Positions 41,680 to 64,000 of a DNA stretch of 64,000 nt are shown in pieces. How positions within the stretch are numbered: position 1 is the stretch's first letter; every line of letters begins with the position of its first letter. The translations under genes were made by a program, and so were the position numbers. The DNA comes from a virus. Below the pieces are notes generated by a model. It ran no database searches and was not told where the DNA came from. It saw only the letters and a program-made list of their open reading frames with translations. Where the stretch lies: positions 54,696-118,695 of the IMG/VR virus record IMGVR_UViG_3300022930_000001. The stretch is one strand, 5' to 3'.

Positions 41680-41985
41680 TTAAATATTAGTTTTGTTTTC
41701 CTCTATTTTAGGATCTACTTGTTTAGATGCTTCAATATTTATAGAAGCATTATCTTGTGTTTGAATACTATTTGCAGAATTTGATTTTTTAGCAGCACTA
41801 TTACCCCAATAATATCCTGAAATAAGCATTACAATACCAAATATACCTTGAGTTATTTGTGTTTGTATTGATTCTGTTCCTTTAAATACTCCTGAGGCAG
41901 CACAAAAGAAAAAACTTATTCCTCCAAGTGTCCATATAATAGCTAAAGATGCTTCTAAAGGATTTATTTTGTTTAAATTATCCAT
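41680..41985 (-). CDS. Putative holin (two TM helices)
   Basis: Two TM segments followed by GYYWGNS, a holin-like motif. Confidence 0.65.
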   Translation of the reverse strand: MDNLNKINPLEASLAIIWTLGGISFFFCAASGVFKGTESIQTQITQGIFGIVMLISGYYWGNSAAKKSNSANSIQTQDNASINIEASKQVDPKIEENKTNI

Positions 41986-49972: not shown

Positions 49973-51523
49973 TTAGAACTGTGGATTTTCTTCTATAAGA
50001 ACCATCCTAGAAAGATCTTCAACGAAGATATCTGAACGATCTTCCATCCAAACAGTACATGTAGGACTAAGTGAGCTTGAAATCATTCCCTGAGAAGCGG
50101 CATGACCCTGTACACTTGTACGGCCATTTACATAACCCCAAGTCATTGAAGGAGCACCCTTCATACGAACTTCACGAACATTATTTTTAGGAGTACCATC
50201 ACCTTCTGGAGTTATATCGAACACCATAAATATTGGTGTTGATTTCTTATTCTGACCAAACTCGTTATTAGTCTGTGGAAGATCAAGTTCCTTAAGATGA
50301 CGAAGTTCTATTGTACCTGTATCCAATGTCCAAACACGAGAGAAATTCATATTAAGCATCAAATCCTGTCCAGAACCAGTAACAAACTTATCGTTATCAC
50401 CGGCATTGAAAACTACACCAGAACCCATTGCATCTTGCTTAGCAGCAGTATTGAAAACTTCCATACCTGCTTCATTCGTATAGATGCGTACACGCCTCTT
50501 CTGAATATCAACCCTACGGTAGAACAAATCTCCATAGATATTACGCATCAAATTAATAGTAAAGTCACCACGATTATAAGTAACACGATTACCATAATTA
50601 CGCATCTTCCAATAAAGACCTTCAACAGATTTCTTTATCTCCTGACGAGTTCCCATTGACTTAGAAGTACCCGGTTTAGACCATATAAAACGACTAACCT
50701 TAAGATCAAGCATTTCTTTACGCATCTGAGACTCAATAAATGATTCCCAACGCATATCAAGCAATTTAGGTTTACCAACTTCATTTAGCTGATATTTACC
50801 ATATGCCATTACATTCAATGGATTACCATTTGCATCTTTCAATGAAAGCTGATTAGCCCATTTAGTAATAGTATGCTGAAGACCATAACCACCTGCCATA
50901 GTTTCATATAACTGGATCGTCTGACCCAATTCTGGAAGACCTGACAATTCCTGATCAAATTCACCAATATGGACATCGACACGTTGCATATTAAGACCTA
51001 CCTGAAGCCATACTGCAGCATCTACATATTCTGTACCTGAAGATATTGAATCCAAAGTACATTTGTATTTCCAACCTGCATTATATGGAGTAGGATCTTC
51101 AATAACAGTAAACTGAGGAGCATAACGATGATCTGCAGTTATAGCATCATTTACAAAGAATGCTTTCCTATCTAATACTATTTCAAAAGGTTGTCCGTCA
51201 ATACCCGGAGTAGAAAGTGCCTGAGTTGATGCAGGTATTTCTATGATAGTTGGATAACGATAAGGAACACCTATTTTCCAAGTCCAGAAATCATTATCAG
51301 AGTAGAAAGTATCCGACTGATTTATCATCTGAAGGAAATCATTGCTATACTGAGATGTTTGTGTATACAGGGTTATAATTTCCTTGTCATACTTACTTGG
51401 GTGCATCTGATGCAAAGAATAAAGGCTGTTCGTATCTGTAAACTTACCGACAGCACGACTATCCATAGAGGATACCCTCGTTGCCTGATAGCCTATAAAA
51501 CCCGGAATGTTAGTTAAACTCAT
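49973..51523 (-). CDS. Major capsid protein
   Basis: 516 aa, downstream of portal and scaffold-like genes; biased codon usage; EGL...M and V.IYTNEAG..VF segments as in crAss-like MCPs. Confidence 0.85.
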   Translation of the reverse strand: MSLTNIPGFIGYQATRVSSMDSRAVGKFTDTNSLYSLHQMHPSKYDKEIITLYTQTSQYSNDFLQMINQSDTFYSDNDFWTWKIGVPYRYPTIIEIPASTQALSTPGIDGQPFEIVLDRKAFFVNDAITADHRYAPQFTVIEDPTPYNAGWKYKCTLDSISSGTEYVDAAVWLQVGLNMQRVDVHIGEFDQELSGLPELGQTIQLYETMAGGYGLQHTITKWANQLSLKDANGNPLNVMAYGKYQLNEVGKPKLLDMRWESFIESQMRKEMLDLKVSRFIWSKPGTSKSMGTRQEIKKSVEGLYWKMRNYGNRVTYNRGDFTINLMRNIYGDLFYRRVDIQKRRVRIYTNEAGMEVFNTAAKQDAMGSGVVFNAGDNDKFVTGSGQDLMLNMNFSRVWTLDTGTIELRHLKELDLPQTNNEFGQNKKSTPIFMVFDITPEGDGTPKNNVREVRMKGAPSMTWGYVNGRTSVQGHAASQGMISSSLSPTCTVWMEDRSDIFVEDLSRMVLIEENPQF

Positions 51524-52889: not shown

Positions 52890-55493
52890 CTATTTCTTCT
52901 TAGAAGAAGCAGCTTTTTGCTTATTTTCTTTTGCTATTTTAACCTGTTGATCAATTTTATACTTTTCCATTTGAAGTTTCTCTCGTTGTAAATTATTACT
53001 ATCTAATGTTTGTCTTTGTGAATTTAAAATATCTGCTTGCTTCTGAGTTAATTCTTTAAGTTTTAATTGATACTCACGTTCAGCTTTAGATATTTCTAGA
53101 TTTTGTTGAGAAAGTTCTAATACATCAGGTAATCCATTTCCATTGACATCTTCACCACCTGATTTGGAAGTAGCACTAATCATTGCGATTCTTTCTTTTG
53201 ATAAGCGATCTTGTTCCTTTTGATAAGCATCATATGCCTGATCCTTTTCATGTTGCAATTGTAACAACTGTTGTGTTTTTTCAAACTGTTGCTGCTGCAT
53301 TTGCATTTCTTGCTGTTTCATTTGCTGTTCTTGATCAAGACGTTGATCAGTTTCTTTTTTCATTTTCTTAAAGATGTCTTTCATTTGACGCATACTCTTA
53401 GTAGAATATAATACCGCAACCTCATAAGGAGAAGCACCATTCTGAAGCATAGCTTGAGAAAGCTGTCTAAATTCTTGAAAATTCCTAGCATCTTCAGCTC
53501 TAGAAGTAACAAATACGCCAAGTTCTTTTAATTTAAGATCTGCACCATTAACTTGAACAAATGCTGCTTCACCTTCAGTGGTAATATAACTAATTGTGCT
53601 TTGAGGTTTAGTTGATTCTATTTTCAAAGCAGCATCAAGAATTGCTTGATATAGTTTATTAAGAGTATATTCATGTTGAGCAAACCAAGGTTCTGTTTGG
53701 GCATAAGATTGTGTTAAAGAACTATTAATAGCTGTTGCAGTCTCTGTTGCTTTAGATTCACCAACACGATTATCAGAAAGACCTATAAGTTTCCAACATT
53801 CTGTACGCATCTGTACTGCAAGATTATAATACCCTTGTATTTCATTTGCTCTTGATAGATTTAATGCAGTGTGTTGATTAAAGCTTGAAGGTGCTTTAAG
53901 ATTTTCAGGTGAATCATCTATAAAGATAATACCCTTTTCTCTTGCTTCTGCTTCCCACATTTCTAGAGCATCTTGGTGATCTCCATCTTTTGGTACAGGT
54001 ATATGTCGAATAGATGTCAAAAATGTCATACCCATGTCCTTTTCAGTAAGCTTAAACAGCTTATTCATTGCTACATTATAAAGCATTTGAAAAGGTTTCA
54101 TCATATCTATTAATGATGGTGGATCAGTAACATTTTTAGGTTCAAACAAACAACCTACTATAGGACAATAGTCAAGTATTTCTAATGGTTTAACATAATA
54201 AACATCTAATCCTATTTTAACTCCTTCATACCACTGATTAACCCATCCCCATTCTAAAGATATCTGTTGTGGATGCATACCTGATTTATATTCTTCACCA
54301 ACAAGCATTACCTGTTCTGCGCCATCCTCATCAATATATTTTAATTCTCCTACTTTCTTTTTAGAAGCCCAATATGCTCGAACAATAAGAAATTTATTAC
54401 CAAATACTGCCGCAGAACTAGTTATTCCTAAAAGTGAACTTAATTCATCTTGATTTTCATGAGCTTCTCCTTCCAATAGTTGTCGATATTGTAAAACGGC
54501 AGGATCATAATTATCATATCGAACACTATTAAAACCTGCTTTACCGGGAACAACTAAATTAGAAGGTGTAGAATTTAATAGATAACCTTGTTGAGACATA
54601 TCTCTAAGATGATCAATTTCATCTTTACCAAGTTTAAATTTATTAATAATTTCTGAAAACTCCATTATTTCAACTGTGCCTGCAGCATAAGCTCCCTTAT
54701 TCATATCTAAAGGATCAGAAGTATATCTCGTATCAGTACTATTAAGATACCATACGTTTTTAGGATTCATTACTTCAATATTAAATCCAAAAGGAGAATT
54801 ATCTGCATAAATATGATAATATTCTTCTGCAGATATGAGAAGATCTCTAAAAGCATCTTCTGATTTTTCTTTTATATTAAATCTCATTTTCATAAGATCT
54901 AATACTCTAGCTCCCCATCTCTCGGCCATTGATGAATAAGAAGTTAAATATTCCTCTGCTTTTTCAGCAGTCATTTGATTTAACTCATCATCTTCCATTT
55001 CAATACCTTGCATAGAAGCTTTTGCTTGCAACTGTTGTTTTACTACAGTCATAATAAGCTGCTGTAAAGTATCTGTTCTAAATTCTAATTCTTGTGATTT
55101 AGAATCATCATCAAAAGCCTTAACAATAACATTGTCAGGTCGTTTAGTCATTTCACCAACCATAGTATTCAGTGGTGAATTTAATATAGAATAGTGCTTT
55201 ACATAAGAAGGTAATGATTCATCTCGCAAAAGAGTTTCTGTAAAAGATTGAACTAATGGTTCATTATAAAAATCACTACGTCTTAGAATACCTTTTACTA
55301 ATTCATAATTAGGAACTATCTTATATCGATTATGAGTATATTGTTGAAGTGCAAGATTATAAAAATAATCCATATTTACTTTCCACCAATCATGATCTTG
55401 TTTTTCTCGTTCTCCTACAAACTGATCAGGATAACGATTAAGAAGTGCAAAGTTTGGATCAGTATACTTTTTTGTATATTTAATGATTGCCAT
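52890..55493 (-). CDS. Portal protein
   Basis: 867 aa after TerL; GE..KRP, SLIDMMKPFQMLYN, R.G....ETA motifs and a Q-rich C-terminal coiled coil. Confidence 0.9.
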   Translation of the reverse strand: MAIIKYTKKYTDPNFALLNRYPDQFVGEREKQDHDWWKVNMDYFYNLALQQYTHNRYKIVPNYELVKGILRRSDFYNEPLVQSFTETLLRDESLPSYVKHYSILNSPLNTMVGEMTKRPDNVIVKAFDDDSKSQELEFRTDTLQQLIMTVVKQQLQAKASMQGIEMEDDELNQMTAEKAEEYLTSYSSMAERWGARVLDLMKMRFNIKEKSEDAFRDLLISAEEYYHIYADNSPFGFNIEVMNPKNVWYLNSTDTRYTSDPLDMNKGAYAAGTVEIMEFSEIINKFKLGKDEIDHLRDMSQQGYLLNSTPSNLVVPGKAGFNSVRYDNYDPAVLQYRQLLEGEAHENQDELSSLLGITSSAAVFGNKFLIVRAYWASKKKVGELKYIDEDGAEQVMLVGEEYKSGMHPQQISLEWGWVNQWYEGVKIGLDVYYVKPLEILDYCPIVGCLFEPKNVTDPPSLIDMMKPFQMLYNVAMNKLFKLTEKDMGMTFLTSIRHIPVPKDGDHQDALEMWEAEAREKGIIFIDDSPENLKAPSSFNQHTALNLSRANEIQGYYNLAVQMRTECWKLIGLSDNRVGESKATETATAINSSLTQSYAQTEPWFAQHEYTLNKLYQAILDAALKIESTKPQSTISYITTEGEAAFVQVNGADLKLKELGVFVTSRAEDARNFQEFRQLSQAMLQNGASPYEVAVLYSTKSMRQMKDIFKKMKKETDQRLDQEQQMKQQEMQMQQQQFEKTQQLLQLQHEKDQAYDAYQKEQDRLSKERIAMISATSKSGGEDVNGNGLPDVLELSQQNLEISKAEREYQLKLKELTQKQADILNSQRQTLDSNNLQREKLQMEKYKIDQQVKIAKENKQKAASSKKK

Positions 55494-57882: not shown

Positions 57883-58155
57883 TTAATAATCTTCTTCATC
57901 ATCTTCTAGATTTGTATCTAAATTCATCCCATCTTTGATAATCATATCTAATTCTGAAGGATTTGTATCTAGTTCTTTTTCACATCGATATTTTTCAAAT
58001 ATAAAATATAATTCCTTATCGGATATTCCATCAAAGTTTTTATTATAATCTGCAAGTGCTAGGGATAGATGCTGGGCCAACGCTTGCTTTGGATATTGTC
58101 GAGATAGTTCTTTTAGAACATTTATAATCTCAATTTTATAGTTCTGGTTTTTCAT
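57883..58155 (-). CDS. Hypothetical protein, weak YihD/DUF1040-like pattern
   Basis: I..L..L...YP...L.Q.L......ISDKEL pattern. Confidence 0.55.
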   Translation of the reverse strand: MKNQNYKIEIINVLKELSRQYPKQALAQHLSLALADYNKNFDGISDKELYFIFEKYRCEKELDTNPSELDMIIKDGMNLDTNLEDDEEDY

Positions 58156-58480
58156 TTTTTATTTGTTCTTGGATTTTAGTATTTTCTTCATGTGTTGTAA
58201 CAGATGTCCAAAGTACTTCTAATTTAGCTTGTGGATTTACTTCATTATAATTTTTAATACCACATTCACAAGATAAACATTTAGTCTTTGCTTTAAGATT
58301 ACATCCACATGCCTTACAATAACTAGTTAAAGTTATTTTACCACAAGTAGAATTAAAAGGACAATTTAGGCATATTGCTCTTCGTTCCTCTGCTACTTGT
58401 TCTATTAGATCTTCTAAATCCTTTGGAGGAATTATTGCATTTCTAAATCCTTCAAGAATCTTATTTGGTTCAATTTTCAT
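58136..58480 (-). CDS. Cys-rich putative Zn-binding protein
   Basis: R..IC..CP, C..CGC.L.AK..C....C. Confidence 0.7.
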   Translation of the reverse strand: MKIEPNKILEGFRNAIIPPKDLEDLIEQVAEERRAICLNCPFNSTCGKITLTSYCKACGCNLKAKTKCLSCECGIKNYNEVNPQAKLEVLWTSVTTHEENTKIQEQIKNEKPEL

Positions 58481-59438: not shown

Positions 59439-59786
59439 TTATGCTTTGCTAAATAATTTTTCCATTTGTTTTTCTATTTCCTTGATTGTGCCTGTTACTG
59501 TAACCATTAATCCTGAAGCAAGATATACATCAACAGAATCATATCTAGGATCGTCAGGATTCTCCGTAAATGCTTCTAGTGAGCAATTCTCTATCATTGC
59601 AACGATCTGGTCAGGATCTACCCTTAAATTGGCTAGTTTAGCTATCGGTGCTTCTTTATCTTCCCTTATATCTTTTTTCCAAGCATCTGCTTCATCATAG
59701 TCTTCAGATTCATCTAAAGAATTTAAGTATGCATCATATTCCTTACTCTTATATGTTCGTGTTTTTAAATTAAGATATTTTTTCAT
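59439..59786 (-). CDS. Hypothetical acidic protein
   Basis: 115-aa ORF in the minus-strand run. Confidence 0.7.
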   Translation of the reverse strand: MKKYLNLKTRTYKSKEYDAYLNSLDESEDYDEADAWKKDIREDKEAPIAKLANLRVDPDQIVAMIENCSLEAFTENPDDPRYDSVDVYLASGLMVTVTGTIKEIEKQMEKLFSKA

Positions 59787-59964
59787 CTTCTTTTATATTA
59801 AATAGTTTTAAATATTCCTTAGCCTTTTCACTTTGATTTAAATCAACCATTACAACTTTTCCAATATCTTTTGACATAATATCTACAAAAGCGTCTCGTA
59901 CTTGTTTATATTCTTTATATTTAAGTTGCATTAAATCAAACAAATCTTTTAATTCTGCAGTCAT
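59770..59964 (-). CDS. Hypothetical protein
   Basis: 64-aa ORF overlapping the next gene. Confidence 0.6.
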   Translation of the reverse strand: MTAELKDLFDLMQLKYKEYKQVRDAFVDIMSKDIGKVVMVDLNQSEKAKEYLKLFNIKEDEKIS

Positions 59965-59966
59965 AA

Positions 59967-60269
59967 TTATATAGTTTTAATTTTAGCAATTGGTTCAGGC
60001 TCTGACATAAGTAGATAAAATTCATTATCTAATTGATTAACAGGTATACCTATACCTGAATGAGGGCCAAACATAACTCGATCACCTACGATATATTTCT
60101 TTACATCAATTCCTATAGCCACTACAACACCTGTAGGTATATCTACTTGTTCTTTTTGATGTCCTGCAGATACTATAAGACCTCCTGCTGATACAAGATC
60201 TGAAGCCTTATCTTGCCTTATAATCATTCTATTTCCTGATAGTTCTAATTGTTCTACTTTAATATTCAT
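59967..60269 (-). CDS. groES: Co-chaperonin GroES-like protein
   Basis: L.GNRMII, SAGGLIV mobile loop, GVVVAIG, VGDRVMF..HSG, YLLMSE..IA. Confidence 0.88.
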   Translation of the reverse strand: MNIKVEQLELSGNRMIIRQDKASDLVSAGGLIVSAGHQKEQVDIPTGVVVAIGIDVKKYIVGDRVMFGPHSGIGIPVNQLDNEFYLLMSEPEPIAKIKTI

Positions 60270-60463
60270 TATTCTTTAGTTTTGGTTTTTTCTTGATTAA
60301 TTAAATCTTGTAAAGATTGTGAAGCTTTATTGTACTGTTCTTGATAAGGCTTCATTAATTCGATTAAACTTTCATGTTGTTTTTCCTTAAATTCTTTTCT
60401 AGCTTTAGCTTCTTCAAAAGATTCCCACTTAAATTGTTCTTCTCCTTCTTGTGTTATATTCAT
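60269..60463 (-). CDS. Hypothetical coiled-coil protein
   Basis: 64 aa, coupled on both sides (ATGA and TAATG overlaps). Confidence 0.6.
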   Translation of the reverse strand: MNITQEGEEQFKWESFEEAKARKEFKEKQHESLIELMKPYQEQYNKASQSLQDLINQEKTKTKE

Positions 60464-60738
60464 TTAAAAGATTTTTGATATTCTATTACTTTTTTATATA
60501 AATCTATTAATGCATCATTTGGATTATTGCCTTTTCCTACAATTCCTTTATAGTCTTTCCAAAATATAAACCTTTCATGATCATCTGGACTATCTGATTC
60601 ATATGGAATATCTTCTGCATTACCTCTCCATGCTAACCACTTTCCATCACTATCAGCTCCTCCATATCTATCATCTACTATAGTAACTAATCCTAAATTT
60701 AAAGCGTTTTCTAATATTAAATTACACTCCATAATCAT
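60460..60738 (-). CDS. Hypothetical protein
   Basis: 92 aa; DRYGG...GKWLAW and VGKG..P..A..DL. Confidence 0.7.
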   Translation of the reverse strand: MIMECNLILENALNLGLVTIVDDRYGGADSDGKWLAWRGNAEDIPYESDSPDDHERFIFWKDYKGIVGKGNNPNDALIDLYKKVIEYQKSFK

Positions 60739-60973
60739 TATTCAGTTCTTTTATAATTAAATCATTAAACTCTTTCATCCATTTTTTAGATGCTTCTTCA
60801 TCAGGGCAAATAACTTGTAAGTTTATTCTACGCTTATTTTTTTCTAGTTTATCTTTATGGTAGAATAAGTCCTTAAATACATCTTCTATCATTTTAGAAG
60901 TAAATTCTCCTTGCTTATATTCTTGTTTATTTTCTTGCATTTGTGATATAATACCTTTACTTTCTGGTTGCAT
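60722..60973 (-). CDS. Hypothetical protein
   Basis: 83-aa ORF overlapping its neighbours. Confidence 0.6.
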   Translation of the reverse strand: MQPESKGIISQMQENKQEYKQGEFTSKMIEDVFKDLFYHKDKLEKNKRRINLQVICPDEEASKKWMKEFNDLIIKELNNDYGV

Positions 60974-61619
60974 ATACTTCTATTATTTTTTCGACTATAG
61001 GATCACGATGATTAGTCTTAAGAGTAACAATACTAAATCCGGGAATATCCTTTAGATTTTCACATATAAAAGTAAAACCTGACATTCTATCATCCCTAAG
61101 ATCTATCTGGGCAACATCACCACAAAGAATCATTTTAGAACCATTACAAAGCCTACCAAGCATAAGTTCCATTTGCTTATCCGTAACATTCTGAGCTTCA
61201 TCTACTACAACTATACAATCAGTCATATTTCTTCCCCTCATGAAAGCTAGAGGTATAACTTCTATTTTGCCTTCATGAAGAAGTGAATCAATCTTATCCC
61301 TATTATAAAGCCTATACATATTGTCGTATATTGCGGCGGTATAAGGTGCAAGCTTAGAATCAATATTACCGGGCATAAAACCTATTTCTTCACCTGCAGT
61401 TACAGTAGGACGAGTAAGTATAATACGACTTACTTCTTTACGAAACAAAAGGTCAAGTGCTATCTGAGCAGCAAGCATTGATTTACCACTACCTGCAAAT
61501 CCTTTAAGAACAGTTATCTTATTCCTTAGTATAGTATCTTTAGCTTCTTTCTGTTCTTGATTAAGCTCTACTGCAAAATGTATTGGATTCTTAATTACTT
61601 TCTTTTTCTGTTCCATCAT
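60957..61619 (-). CDS. phoH: PhoH-family ATPase
   Basis: GFAGSGKS, TRP, GFMPG...K..P, FMRGR, DEAQN, GSKMILCGD..Q.D, HR.P.V. Confidence 0.95.
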   Translation of the reverse strand: MMEQKKKVIKNPIHFAVELNQEQKEAKDTILRNKITVLKGFAGSGKSMLAAQIALDLLFRKEVSRIILTRPTVTAGEEIGFMPGNIDSKLAPYTAAIYDNMYRLYNRDKIDSLLHEGKIEVIPLAFMRGRNMTDCIVVVDEAQNVTDKQMELMLGRLCNGSKMILCGDVAQIDLRDDRMSGFTFICENLKDIPGFSIVTLKTNHRDPIVEKIIEVYATRK

Positions 61620-61625
61620 TAGGTT

Positions 61626-62060
61626 TTATTTAATATTTAAATACTGCATTATTTTCTTTAGTTCGTTAATAGATTTAATTTCTCCCCAAAAAACGCCGTT
61701 TCCTCTATCGTCTATCTGCCACTTTCCGCCCCAACCAGCACAATAAATAAGATCGTATCCCGATTCACTACTAACTAACTTAGTATAACTTTGATTATAA
61801 CCATCTTGTGTATATTCTTGGCATACCCATCCTAATGATTCTATATCTGATTGATCAAGATATTTAGTTCTAATAAACTTTTTAAGACTATTTTCTTCTT
61901 CTGCCCATTGTATGTACCATCTTAAATCAGTACTAGTTAATTTGTCTTTAACTACATCATCATAATCTTCAACAATAAAAGATGACATATTACTTGTATG
62001 TTCACATTCATATCCTACATATAGATCTTCTATTTCAGGAGTATAATATTTATTCTTCAT
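61626..62060 (-). CDS. Hypothetical phage protein
   Basis: YYTP.IE...VGYE.E, KYLD..DIESLGW, IKSINELKK. Confidence 0.75.
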   Translation of the reverse strand: MKNKYYTPEIEDLYVGYECEHTSNMSSFIVEDYDDVVKDKLTSTDLRWYIQWAEEENSLKKFIRTKYLDQSDIESLGWVCQEYTQDGYNQSYTKLVSSESGYDLIYCAGWGGKWQIDDRGNGVFWGEIKSINELKKIMQYLNIK

Positions 62061-62250
62061 CTTCTTCCTCCATTTTTATAAATCCATTCTCAATCATTTG
62101 CTTAGGGTAGAATTGATGAGTTTTACCATTCTCAGTCTTCATACTAAAATAATTATTATTACTCATATAATAGATCTGTCCTTCAGGGAAAGTATAAGTC
62201 TCATCTACTATTTGATCCTTAAGCCAAGTTATTTTTATTCTTTTTTTCAT
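62050..62250 (-). CDS. Hypothetical protein
   Basis: 66 aa, first gene after the promoter at 62270. Confidence 0.65.
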   Translation of the reverse strand: MKKRIKITWLKDQIVDETYTFPEGQIYYMSNNNYFSMKTENGKTHQFYPKQMIENGFIKMEEEDEE

Positions 62251-62269
62251 ATACTTATTTTTACTATTG

Positions 62270-62301
62270 CAAAAATAGTGTATATATTTTAGATGACCAA
62301 A
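62270..62301 (-). promoter_or_regulatory. Bacteroidota-type sigma70 promoter
   Basis: TATTTTTG (62270-62277) and TTTG (62298-62301), 20-nt spacer. Confidence 0.75.
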
Positions 62302-62319
62302 TTTAATTTTTAAAATTAG

Positions 62320-62532
62320 TTATTTATATATTGGATGCACTGATAACCAAGCTTTTGTGATTTCATCTAATACATCTCCTTTTACATAGGATTTACAATT
62401 CTTATAATAGTTCTTATCTAATACTAGATTATATTTATTTTCTAAAGCAATTAGTTCTTCTTCAGTTAATCCTGTGAGATAATTTCCTTCTTTATTTCTA
62501 TATGGACAATATGCTATTTTTCCTGTTATCAT
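62320..62532 (-). CDS. 70-aa miniature paralog of the N-terminal domain of 48814..49797
   Basis: ATG at 62532 (MITGKI...); PYRNKEGNYLTGL and ITKAWLSVHP match PHKERNGEYRTGL and ITYAWLRVHP. Confidence 0.7.
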   Translation of the reverse strand: MITGKIAYCPYRNKEGNYLTGLTEEELIALENKYNLVLDKNYYKNCKSYVKGDVLDEITKAWLSVHPIYK

Positions 62533-62536
62533 AAAG

Positions 62537-62566
62537 CAAAGATAAATAAAATTTTTTAAAGTCAAG
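62537..62566 (-). promoter_or_regulatory. Bacteroidota-type promoter, nearly leaderless
   Basis: TATCTTTG (62537-62544) 4 nt before the ATG at 62532; CTTG about 18 nt upstream. Confidence 0.6.
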
Positions 62567-62715
62567 TATAGCCTAAAAATTTTTAAAATTTTGAAAGTTG
62601 TTTTATGTACCCGGGGTTATACCACATCATCTTCAGACTCCCGTTATCGTTTGCGAGGTGACGGTATTCCCCTATGCACTATTTAACTTAATTTAACTTT
62701 AAAACAAAAACAATT

Positions 62716-63159
62716 ATGAAACGTGAATTGAATGTTCCATTTATGACTCGCATCACCAAGTTCCGTGGTGACAAACAAGCTCAAGCTTTGAATTCTAAGC
62801 AAGAAGTACTTGCTATTCCAGAAGCATTTCGTGCTGACATAGCCGAAGGTGACAGTGTTATCTGTATGCTTAAGGAATACAATAGTGCATCTATTGATCC
62901 TAATACTGGTGATGCATTGGTTGATGCCAATGGTGCAGTAGTATATGGTGGCCCAACCTTTACTCGTATTGATGTAGTAGACTTTGGTACTACTGTTGAG
63001 ATAACTCAGAAGTTCTATGCTGATGAGATACTTGATGCAGAAGCTACTGATATAGTAAAGGAAACTATCACTGCTGCTCGTGAAGCACGCAAGCGTCCTA
63101 TTACTACAGATCGTAAGCCTGTTGTAGCTACTGCTGATGCAGAGCCTGTAATGAGCTAA
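62716..63159 (+). CDS. First gene of the plus-strand (putative early) region, hypothetical
   Basis: 147 aa, apparent high-expression codon bias, A-rich leader, followed by a terminator. Confidence 0.85.
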   Translation: MKRELNVPFMTRITKFRGDKQAQALNSKQEVLAIPEAFRADIAEGDSVICMLKEYNSASIDPNTGDALVDANGAVVYGGPTFTRIDVVDFGTTVEITQKFYADEILDAEATDIVKETITAAREARKRPITTDRKPVVATADAEPVMS

Positions 63160-63168
63160 GAATAATCT

Positions 63169-63212
63169 TTAAGAGCTATTGTACTGTAATGGTGCAGTAG
63201 CTCTTAATTTTT
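63169..63212 (+). terminator. Intrinsic terminator
   Basis: 18-bp stem TTAAGAGCTATTGTACTG/TGGTGCAGTAGCTCTTAA with several G-U pairs (favours the plus strand), then a T-run. Confidence 0.8.
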
Positions 63213-63314
63213 ATTAGTTACAACCTCTATAATACTAGCTGCAGAGCCGTTGTGAACCTTGAATACAATTACCCTGATCAGGAGTATTCTTGTAGTATGT
63301 ATGTTGTAACTAAT
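63213..63314 (+). ncRNA. Candidate structured RNA
   Basis: 12-bp closing stem ATTAGTTACAAC/GTTGTAACTAAT enclosing nested stems ATACTA/TAGTAT, GAATAC/GTATTC and the palindrome CCTGATCAGG. Confidence 0.45.
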
Positions 63315-63400
63315 TATTTTATTATCATGTGCTTCTGATAGTATACATTAGTTGCATTTATTTAATAATCATATCTAACTAATTATAATATTAATACCTT

Positions 63401-63508
63401 ATGCGAATATCTAGAGTATTATTAGACAAATGGGTTTATTCTTTTTATCCAGATCTTCATCCTAGAATAATGTATTATCATTTATTATGTTGGAGATCTA
63501 ATTATTAG
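63401..63508 (+). CDS. Possible 35-aa small protein
   Basis: MRISRVLLDKWVYSFYPDLHPRIMYYHLLCWRSNY* after an A/T-rich leader; not in the ORF track. Confidence 0.35.
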   Translation: MRISRVLLDKWVYSFYPDLHPRIMYYHLLCWRSNY

Positions 63509-63588
63509 TTGCAATCATTACTTATATATTCTTTTCTATTATATCTTATTACTATTCAACTTATTATTCATTCTTTAATATAACTATT

Positions 63589-63786
63589 ATGACTAGGCTA
63601 ATGAAATATCATACAATAATGGCTAATCCTGAGTACTATTGGGAGAATAATCAAGTTGCACACCAACTACTTAAGAAAAAGTTAACTACACATCAAGAAT
63701 ATCGCGATGCATGTAGCAGTGCAGGATGTATGGTTTATACTGAAGCAGTTTATACTGATCATATGAATGATGTTCAACACAACTAA
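63589..63786 (+). CDS. Hypothetical early protein
   Basis: 65-aa ORF with an A-rich leader. Confidence 0.6.
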   Translation: MTRLMKYHTIMANPEYYWENNQVAHQLLKKKLTTHQEYRDACSSAGCMVYTEAVYTDHMNDVQHN

Positions 63787-63797
63787 TTAAAAATAAA

Positions 63798-63829
63798 TTT
63801 GGTGGATTGATTTATTTGTTTTATCTTTG
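63798..63829 (+). promoter_or_regulatory. Bacteroidota-type sigma70 promoter
   Basis: TTTG (63798-63801), 20-nt spacer, TATCTTTG (63822-63829). Confidence 0.8.
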
Positions 63830-63835
63830 CATCAA

Positions 63836-63924
63836 TAGATTGTTGTGCGACAATCATCAAGAGTTTAAACTGTTAATCAGTTCACCCACTTAGATGCGCA
63901 CACATCTGGTGGGTTTTTTCTTTT
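63836..63924 (+). ncRNA. Small RNA or attenuator leader with kissing loops, ending in an intrinsic terminator
   Basis: Hairpin 1 loop TGTGCG is the exact reverse complement of terminator loop CGCACA; terminator is followed by TTTTTCTTTT. Confidence 0.6.
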
Positions 63925-64000
63925 AATACAATTCTGATTAACAAACTGCTAAAAGGGATCAGATAACCAAGCATTGTGCCACTGTAACTACAGACGCTAT

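Follow-up and report, generated by a model that had tools for sequence, protein, structure and literature searches.

A probable truncated paralogue of a Gp33-like post-capsid protein, and neighbouring head-protein look-alikes, in a crAss-like phage

The DNA analysed here, referred to as the window, is a 64,000-nucleotide stretch of the IMG/VR virus record IMGVR_UViG_3300022930_000001, and the gene in question is mini70, whose 70-residue product resembles part of a much larger protein encoded beside the major capsid protein (MCP) gene of the same phage. The record is a complete 118,695-bp virus genome with a 127-bp direct terminal repeat, of which the window covers bases 54696–118695, and the sole sequencing run that contains the region carries the label leaf litter metagenome. 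Because its MCP matches the Pfam family Crass_capsid, the phage can be classed as crAss-like. The genes form two divergent arms, both of which begin in the intergenic region 62533–62715 of the window; the plus arm runs round the end of the record, while the minus arm encodes TerL, the portal protein, the MCP, tail proteins and giant virion proteins. mini70 opens the minus arm and has its own promoter-like box close to the ATG, as the first-pass annotation of this sequence had described; the box lies 4 nt before the start codon. The start codon lies at 62532 and the TAA stop codon at 62320–62322; a frame extended to a TTG start would reach up to 62565 and encode 81 amino acids. The coordinates of the features are collected in Table 1.

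Sequence comparison indicates that mini70 is a copy of the core of the N-terminal domain (N-domain) of a 327-residue Gp33-like protein (the parent). The parent gene directly follows the MCP gene, while mini70 lies 12.7 kb upstream of the parent gene and is not directly downstream of the MCP. In pairwise comparison, BLASTP finds the last block of similarity alone, with 10 of 16 residues identical (pairwise E 1e-4). A Smith-Waterman alignment with default gap settings gives z 4.6, its score being equalled by 2 of 1000 shuffles, and three gap-lenient settings give z 6.7–7.8 with 0 of 1000 shuffles in each. When the 85 other open reading frames (ORFs) of at least 60 amino acids in the window were ranked by their match to mini70, the parent came first with a score of 93.9, and the runner-up, at 64.4, was a match within a 2073-residue protein. 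Alignment of mini70 alone to a 33-sequence profile of the parent family with hhalign has a probability of 78.9% and an E of 1.6e-5 over 20 columns. A profile built from mini70 and its two homologues, described below, aligns to the 33-member family profile with a probability of 97.1% and an E of 6.3e-11 over 65 columns, placing residues 5–68 of the small proteins on residues 38–146 of the full-length proteins. MAFFT agrees with this alignment, and the hidden Markov model (HMM) of the Gp33-like family finds mini70 at E 1.2e-4 among the 165 proteins of the genome. The proposal that mini70 is a miniature paralogue with a minimal core is thus borne out by the profile comparison.

Four collinear matches between mini70 and the parent had been the starting point of that proposal. 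All of the string pairs are present in the two sequences, and blocks 2–4 are reproduced by both hhalign and MAFFT. The first block, which pairs MITGKI with MALIGKI, appears in the lenient pairwise alignment only and is probably not homologous, since profile alignments and tblastn to relatives place it elsewhere, pairing residues 1–9 of the small proteins with full-length residues 34–42. The accompanying claim that the intervening loops and the C-terminal half are missing holds in the profile alignments, which show two internal deletions of ~21 and ~23 residues and the absence of residues 1–37 and 147–327. mini70 ends at family position ~147 and does not have the full ~320–330-residue architecture of N-domain, SAP-like and RecA-C-terminal-domain-like parts. 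What it keeps is a core made of a β-hairpin (P-x5-G-x-Y-x-T-G-L) and three helices ending in W-L-x-V-H-P.

An exhaustive HMMER search with mini70 across 1.84 billion representatives (E ≤0.001) returned 5 proteins: mini70 itself, two true homologues named P0123 and P0124, and two repeat proteins. P0123 has a 69-residue core and is encoded on a 121,674-nt contig, and P0124 has 71 residues and is encoded on an 8,197-nt contig. The repeat proteins, P0122 and P0125, are internally repetitive and were rejected as spurious. A profile search retrieved the same three short proteins (hereafter the minis), each of them a singleton. The minis share 44–48% identity, have the two deletions in common, close with the same ...HPxYK end and all retain 11 core positions that are conserved in the family (P43, G49, Y51, G54, L55, Y99, W140, L141, V143, H144 and P145). 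A set of polar residues that is conserved in 94–100% of the 33 full-length members, namely E46, R52, D56 and R142, is not kept by the minis: all three replace E46 (N/N/D), D56 (T/T/T) and R142 (S/K/S), and two of the three change R52 (L/R/L). A kept core together with replaced polar residues has the appearance of a fold under its own constraint, not of decay. In its own frame mini70 has a codon log-odds of 0.28 bits per codon, which is typical of small genes in the minus arm (0.34 ± 0.15); the other five frames score far lower, at −0.38 to −1.77. Because two homologues share its architecture and its codon usage is gene-like, mini70 belongs to a small conserved protein family, and the outcome that would have spoken against it at the outset, an insignificant alignment or an unconserved, decaying duplicate, did not materialise. 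We regard mini70 as very probably a genuine, conserved truncated paralogue. With tblastn against GenBank phages, mini70 matched 7 records, all at chance level (E ≥6), and P0123 and P0124 had no match; pattern scans for relatives of the minis in viral, metagenome and genome contigs gave candidates, none of which was confirmed.

The box upstream of mini70 was compared with the Bacteroidetes promoter consensus, which consists of a −7 element, TAnnTTTG, and a −33 element, TTTG (PMC7366714). The arrangement at mini70 reads cTTG-N18-TATCTTTG-N4-ATG. The window shows no enrichment of the 8-mer TATCTTTG, with 4 copies against an expected 6.2. TAnnTTTG sites on the transcribed strand number 95, and 25 of them fall in intergenic DNA, which makes up 9.4% of the genome; the box of mini70 itself is not counted among the 25. 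The combination TAnnTTTG-N4-ATG is present 6 times, where shuffles give 3.1 ± 1.8, and by itself this excess is not significant. A stricter version, TATYTTTG-N4-ATG, is found at three more gene starts at genome positions 8001, 8818 and 42203, in the plus arm outside the window; the genes behind these boxes encode 157, 167 and 145 residues, and a TTG element lies 20 nt upstream of each box. This points to a promoter box abutting the ATG as a recurrent design in this phage, and it is plausible that the mini70 mRNA is leaderless or nearly so. The in-frame residues upstream of the P0123 start are ...YLCSM, compared with ...YLCFM for mini70, which, as judged from these residues, would fit conservation of the TATCTTTG box and its 4-nt spacing in P0123. 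Rfam and ARAGORN gave no match close to the mini70 gene.

The parent has 307 homologues in a word-indexed search, and hhalign aligns it to Gp33 of phage PhiCrAss001 with a probability of 95% and an E of 3.7e-8 over 209 columns. That protein (YP_009910773.1) also follows the MCP gene and is annotated as a "double-stranded DNA binding domain containing protein"; on this evidence the parent is its orthologue. The AlphaFold2 (AF2) model of the parent has a predicted local distance difference test score (pLDDT) of 84.7 and divides into an N-domain (~1–172), a SAP-like helical domain (~175–256) and a domain resembling the C-terminal domain of RecA (257–323). In this predicted model, the helical domain resembles SAP domains (Z 8.4, root-mean-square deviation (rmsd) 3.0 Å over 77 residues) and the last domain resembles the RecA C-terminal domain (Z 10.0, rmsd 1.6 Å over 62 residues), while the N-domain has no match in the Protein Data Bank (PDB). 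The modelled C-terminal half fits the DNA-binding annotation of Gp33 and hints at a role in DNA handling, not a purely structural one. Pfam, PHROGs and NCBIfam gave nothing for the parent, mini70 or the neighbouring orf66 and orf144, Pfam across all 33 family members gave single-member chance matches alone, the family profile had no match among PDB sequences, and tblastn with the parent found no match in GenBank phages. Foldseek of the full-length model against the PDB returned only RecA (57–61 columns, E ≥0.23). The ESM Atlas, searched with the N-domain, returned unnamed viral clusters only, besides one row for AntA, which was set aside with a TM of 0.28. Fold matches in BFVD were uncharacterised proteins of crAss-like viruses, Cellulophaga phage phi14:2 and Azobacteroides phage ProJPt-Bp1.

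The main text of the PhiCrAss001 structural atlas mentions "gp33" 0 times and names no scaffold (PMC10172136), a review of the Crassvirales describes assembly mechanisms as not established (PMC10136315), and excerpts of the 2018 isolation paper do not name Gp33 among the detected virion proteins (PMC6235969). Gp33 adjoins the capsid gene across crAss-like phages, and a stand-alone copy of its N-domain core would single out the portion that forms a module of its own; mini70 would also be a ready-made competitor for experiments on Gp33. Three short uncharacterised crAss-like or podoviral proteins in BFVD, A0A8S5UP40 (178 residues), A0A8S5RK61 (162 residues) and A0A8S5S0Q6 (188 residues), match the Gp33-like model and may be N-domain-only or split forms elsewhere; A0A8S5UP40 is also the top BFVD match of the mini70 model. 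That model gave one row against 48,161 PDB chains (Z 2.2) and no match in BFVD at E ≤0.001, its top BFVD rows (E 0.026 and 0.84, TMq 0.63 and 0.51) being the same uncharacterised proteins as those found with the full-length model.

Two further look-alikes of head proteins were discovered near mini70 by an all-against-all BLASTP of the 165 ORFs of the genome, and nine family HMMs were scanned against the 165 proteins, that of the MCP being built from the orthologues of 82 relatives. The product of orf83 matches MCP residues 312–347 in BLASTP (pairwise E 1e-7, shuffle z 8.8), and the MCP HMM finds it at E 2.5e-7. Its one Pfam match is PF23898, below the cutoff (E 0.026, 13.3 bits against 27, profile positions 283–325 of 496), and its one PHROG match is phrog_11589, major head protein, also below threshold (E 0.043). 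By these comparisons orf83 resembles a segment of the MCP and not a full HK97-fold MCP. Matches to orf83 by tblastn in 125 loci were taken by position as the MCP genes of relatives. The protein is closer to the family consensus (gEFT..lI..VF.DLFY) than is the MCP of its own genome, and mini70 is 37% identical to its own genome's parent compared with 26–39% to other family members. Because mini70 is no closer to its own parent and orf83 is closer to the consensus than its own MCP, the copies look either old or imported, and held to conserved positions. Mapping of the MCP segment onto PhiCrAss001 gp32 failed, as the pairwise BLASTP match was too weak, and the MCP had no match in a PDB sequence search.

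The likeness of orf64 to the portal protein is weaker than that of orf83 to the MCP and is put forward tentatively. BLASTP aligns it to portal residues 460–479 (E 5e-5), the portal HMM finds it at E 2.2e-5, and its best PHROG is phrog_156, portal (E 0.0052). Its residues 7–30 also weakly resemble MCP residues ~258–285, and the MCP HMM matches its N-terminal half at positions 258–301 (E 0.0047). Matches by tblastn in 81 loci were taken as portal genes of relatives. The portal segment corresponds to residues 429–448 of PhiCrAss001 gp20, upstream of the inner stem helix at 519–541, and may be the outer stem helix. The gene next to orf64, orf100, encodes a GroES/Cpn10-like co-chaperonin, which also matches phrog_3188, co-chaperonin GroES, at E 1.9e-10. 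Like that of mini70, the codon usage of orf83 and orf64 is gene-like.

Across the HMM scan, only three non-self matches reach E <1e-3, namely orf83 for the MCP, orf64 for the portal and mini70 for the Gp33-like family, for which it is the sole non-self match. The three proteins cluster in a single block that comprises 9 of the 165 ORFs (hypergeometric P ~1e-4 for a block defined post hoc). HMMs of TerL and of the gp31-like, gp34-like, p207 and orf108 families served as controls and had no non-self match at E ≤0.1 among the 165 proteins. The AUX (auxiliary-capsid-protein) HMM has two weak matches in the block, orf144 (E 0.0072) and orf64b (E 0.021), which are leads only. Here, where the minus arm begins, the ORFs are closely packed and overlap one another. 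Six of the ten genes in the block were queried, and in the 26 relatives with a complete upstream flank none of the six turned up in the 10 kb before TerL; these relatives keep only orf108, orf114, orf110 and orf118 there; in one relative the arm begins ~2 kb upstream of TerL. By this comparison the block appears to be lineage-specific and accessory. The five small proteins that were looked up are all singletons at 90% identity, and pattern scans for orf83 and orf64 in viral contigs gave none that was confirmed. Beside mini70, the operon contains at least one, and probably two, further look-alikes of head-protein segments together with a co-chaperonin.

Table 1. Genes and promoter-like elements discussed in the text, with positions in the window
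Feature	Position	Strand	Remarks
mini70	62320..62532	-	70 residues; separate copy of the Gp33-like N-domain core (residues 38-146)
Gp33-like parent, 327 residues	48814..49797	-	Directly downstream of MCP; orthologue of PhiCrAss001 Gp33
Major capsid protein (MCP)	49973..51523	-	PF23898 Crass_capsid, E 6.3e-22; parent of the orf83 look-alike segment
Portal protein	52890..55493	-	BLASTP to PhiCrAss001 Gp20 portal, E 7e-30; parent of the orf64 look-alike segment
Accessory block, head of minus arm	59439..62532	-	orf115, orf64b, GroES-like, orf64, orf92, orf83, PhoH, orf144, orf66, mini70
orf83, 83 residues	60722..60973	-	Residues 5-50 resemble MCP ~305-352
orf64, 64 residues	60269..60463	-	Residues 23-61 resemble portal ~455-493
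orf100, GroES/Cpn10-like co-chaperonin	59967..60269	-	PF00166, E 8.6e-7, 29.3 bits against cutoff 21.1, profile 6-92 of 93
TATCTTTG	62537..62544	-	Matches Bacteroidetes -7 consensus TAnnTTTG; 4 nt before mini70 ATG
CTTG	62563..62566	-	Candidate -33 element, partial match to TTTG; 18 nt upstream of the -7 box

The first-pass annotation had suggested that mini70 might be a dominant-negative timer of head assembly, a superinfection-exclusion factor or a decoy for a host sensor. We favour, with a probability of about 0.35, a microProtein-like mechanism in which the small proteins would work in trans by mimicking interfaces. On a given partner, each of them would fill the site at which the matching segment of the Gp33-like protein, the MCP or the portal is normally recognised. 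It could thereby modulate or stop a step in procapsid nucleation or head assembly, while not performing the parent's own task. mini70 would compete with the Gp33-like N-domain for its partner and could not deliver the C-terminal, possibly DNA-binding, domains. A more far-reaching and rather doubtful version is a "self-mimicry cassette", in which an accessory operon by a GroES-like gene would express copies of the most conserved segments of the portal, the MCP and the Gp33-like protein, and the fragments would act together as a nucleation checkpoint or as decoys for host or satellite factors that recognise these segments. If Gp33 is a scaffold, then portal, MCP and Gp33 would be expected to meet at procapsid nucleation. 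Should the look-alikes work as a set, head assembly would be regulated or protected by fragments of the phage's own conserved proteins, and the cassette, if real, would represent a novel kind of regulatory or counter-defence device in phages and give access to the function of Gp33. The literature searched held no account of a phage that encodes fragment copies of MCP or portal, nor of this strategy, which is not proof of absence.

Several observations weigh against interface mimicry. Fragments that mimic the phage's own conserved residues would hinder its own assembly, unless dose or timing prevents this. The head-assembly role that the first-pass annotation gave to the parent is a guess from gene position; the protein is not known to act in head assembly, and its counterpart in PhiCrAss001 is recorded with a dsDNA-binding domain. 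The AF2 model of mini70 has only a moderate pLDDT of 72.9, and because the alignment behind it includes the parent family, the likeness of the model to that family should not be taken as independent evidence. The short similarity of orf64 lies in a K/E-rich protein that matches both the portal and the MCP HMMs and falls outside the top 15 by shuffle z. mini70 is also rare: no separate copy was found in the whole records of 14 large relatives, 13 of which are at least 90% complete, nor in 177 loci, and short MCP- or portal-like frames in the 177 loci were only cut or interrupted copies of the parent genes. Because none of the three small proteins was found in the sampled relatives, this phage group can evidently do without the mimic set. 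The relatives in question are remote ones, whose TerL is 65–67% identical, and the closest (L100, 74%) has too little upstream DNA to tell.

Several known systems offer partial parallels. mini70 carries the two signature motifs of the PhiCrAss001 Gp33 family, although it spans residues 38–146 only, has two deletions and replaced polar residues and is without the C-terminal domains, and PhiCrAss001 Gp33 itself has no WLxVHP motif. H-NST proteins, encoded in horizontally acquired islands, are shortened paralogues of H-NS that act as its antagonists; mini70 has no sequence relation to them but is likewise a truncated paralogue that keeps an N-terminal domain, is without the putative DNA-binding domain and lies in an accessory region. 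In phage T4, the Gol peptide of the MCP gp23 acts on the Lit protease, and gp31 is a GroES-like co-chaperonin for capsid-protein folding. As with Gol, where a short MCP segment is active alone, an MCP-segment look-alike is found here, as the neighbour of the GroES-like orf100, although Gol is part of the MCP and orf83 is a separate gene. MicroProteins are small single-domain proteins that are related to, and interfere with, larger multi-domain proteins (PMC9638782). mini70 has a mass of 8 kDa, a single domain and a relation to a larger multi-domain protein whose putative effector or DNA-binding domains it does not carry. MicroProteins, however, are defined by a demonstrated interaction with the larger protein and come mainly from plants and animals, not from phages.

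orf83 and orf64 favour the mimic set, yet they also revive an improbable reading in which the block stems from a second head module that was acquired by recombination and mostly deleted, leaving pieces that are functionless or have taken on new, unrelated functions. Fragments of three neighbouring head genes within 2.3 kb would be the simplest sign of such a shared origin, none of the sampled relatives has the set, and orf83 and orf64 are without known homologues in viral-contig pattern scans and 90%-identity clusters. The order of the fragments along transcription, however, is the reverse of the parental order although the strand is the same, each fragment is in frame within a start-to-stop ORF with gene-like codons in a tightly packed operon, the 70-residue architecture of mini70 is kept across homologues of 44–48% identity, and the residues retained are the most conserved of the family; dead DNA is usually lost quickly from phage genomes. 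If the pieces were relics after all, they would be traces of a second head module that had been rearranged in an unusual way. An equally unlikely alternative takes the Gp33 N-domain core as a self-sufficient module whose target is unrelated to Gp33, for example a host protein, and the other look-alikes as coincidental. The minis do have a signature of their own (GLT for GLD, N/D for E46, S/K for R142) and are equally distant from all full-length members, and the short BFVD proteins of 162–188 residues match the Gp33-like model. Such a module would leave unexplained the clustering with two other head-protein look-alikes (the post hoc P of ~1e-4), and no fold or family match points to another activity. 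Chance similarity in a spurious ORF might be read from the single 16-residue segment that BLASTP alone gives and from the lack of enrichment of the 8-mer box; it is refuted by the hhalign E of 6.3e-11, the shuffle tests, the two independent homologues and the gene-like codon usage, and we give it almost no weight.

The small proteins might instead be decoys, which we likewise consider unlikely, occupying bacterial sensors of conserved head proteins (MCP, portal and perhaps the Gp33-like protein) that trigger abortive infection and binding them without activating them. Within this phage group, conservation is highest in their parent proteins, and the replacement of conserved polar residues with retention of the fold core would suit binding of this kind. 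They also lie in a lineage-specific accessory block that adjoins a divergent promoter region, and counter-defence genes are often found in such accessory regions. TerL is a classic sensor target, and no TerL look-alike was found with the TerL HMM among the 165 proteins. Bacterial pattern-recognition receptors are documented to target the MCP and the portal, and the Avs-type sensor described in the same preprint envelops the whole folded MCP, burying 3,700 Å² (bioRxiv 10.64898/2026.01.04.697583). A 40-residue segment could hardly imitate this. The mimicked segments are helices that look buried, not exposed, and the literature searched held no phage-encoded fragment decoy of this kind.

Some minor features of the locus and its surroundings were also observed. 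Within the divergent intergenic region, a GC-rich island at 62606–62680 (plus strand) forms a long imperfect hairpin, with a plus-strand folding energy of −28.8 kcal/mol that 0 of 200 shuffles equal (z −3.46; minus strand z −0.26) and no Rfam or tRNA match. The sole terminator-like hairpin within 61500–64000 lies at 63169–63207 (plus strand), directly 3′ of the first gene of the plus arm, which encodes 147 residues, and has an 18-pair stem followed by a T-run. In the accessory block, orf144 (61626–62060, minus strand) has relatives at 28–38% identity in nine other viral contigs, with 2–3 tandem copies in two of them (L002 and L003). Outside the block, orf114 (58136–58480, minus strand) resembles a 101-residue ORF at 41680–41985 (minus strand) with a Smith-Waterman z of 7.1, and the two may be another pair of small paralogues. 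In the closest relative, the TerL reading frame (L100:1674–2400) is interrupted by in-frame stops, two of which, read as DNA, are TGA; both fall at Trp positions of the window's TerL, which suggests recoding of TGA as Trp in that relative, while the window's own genes are open under code 11.

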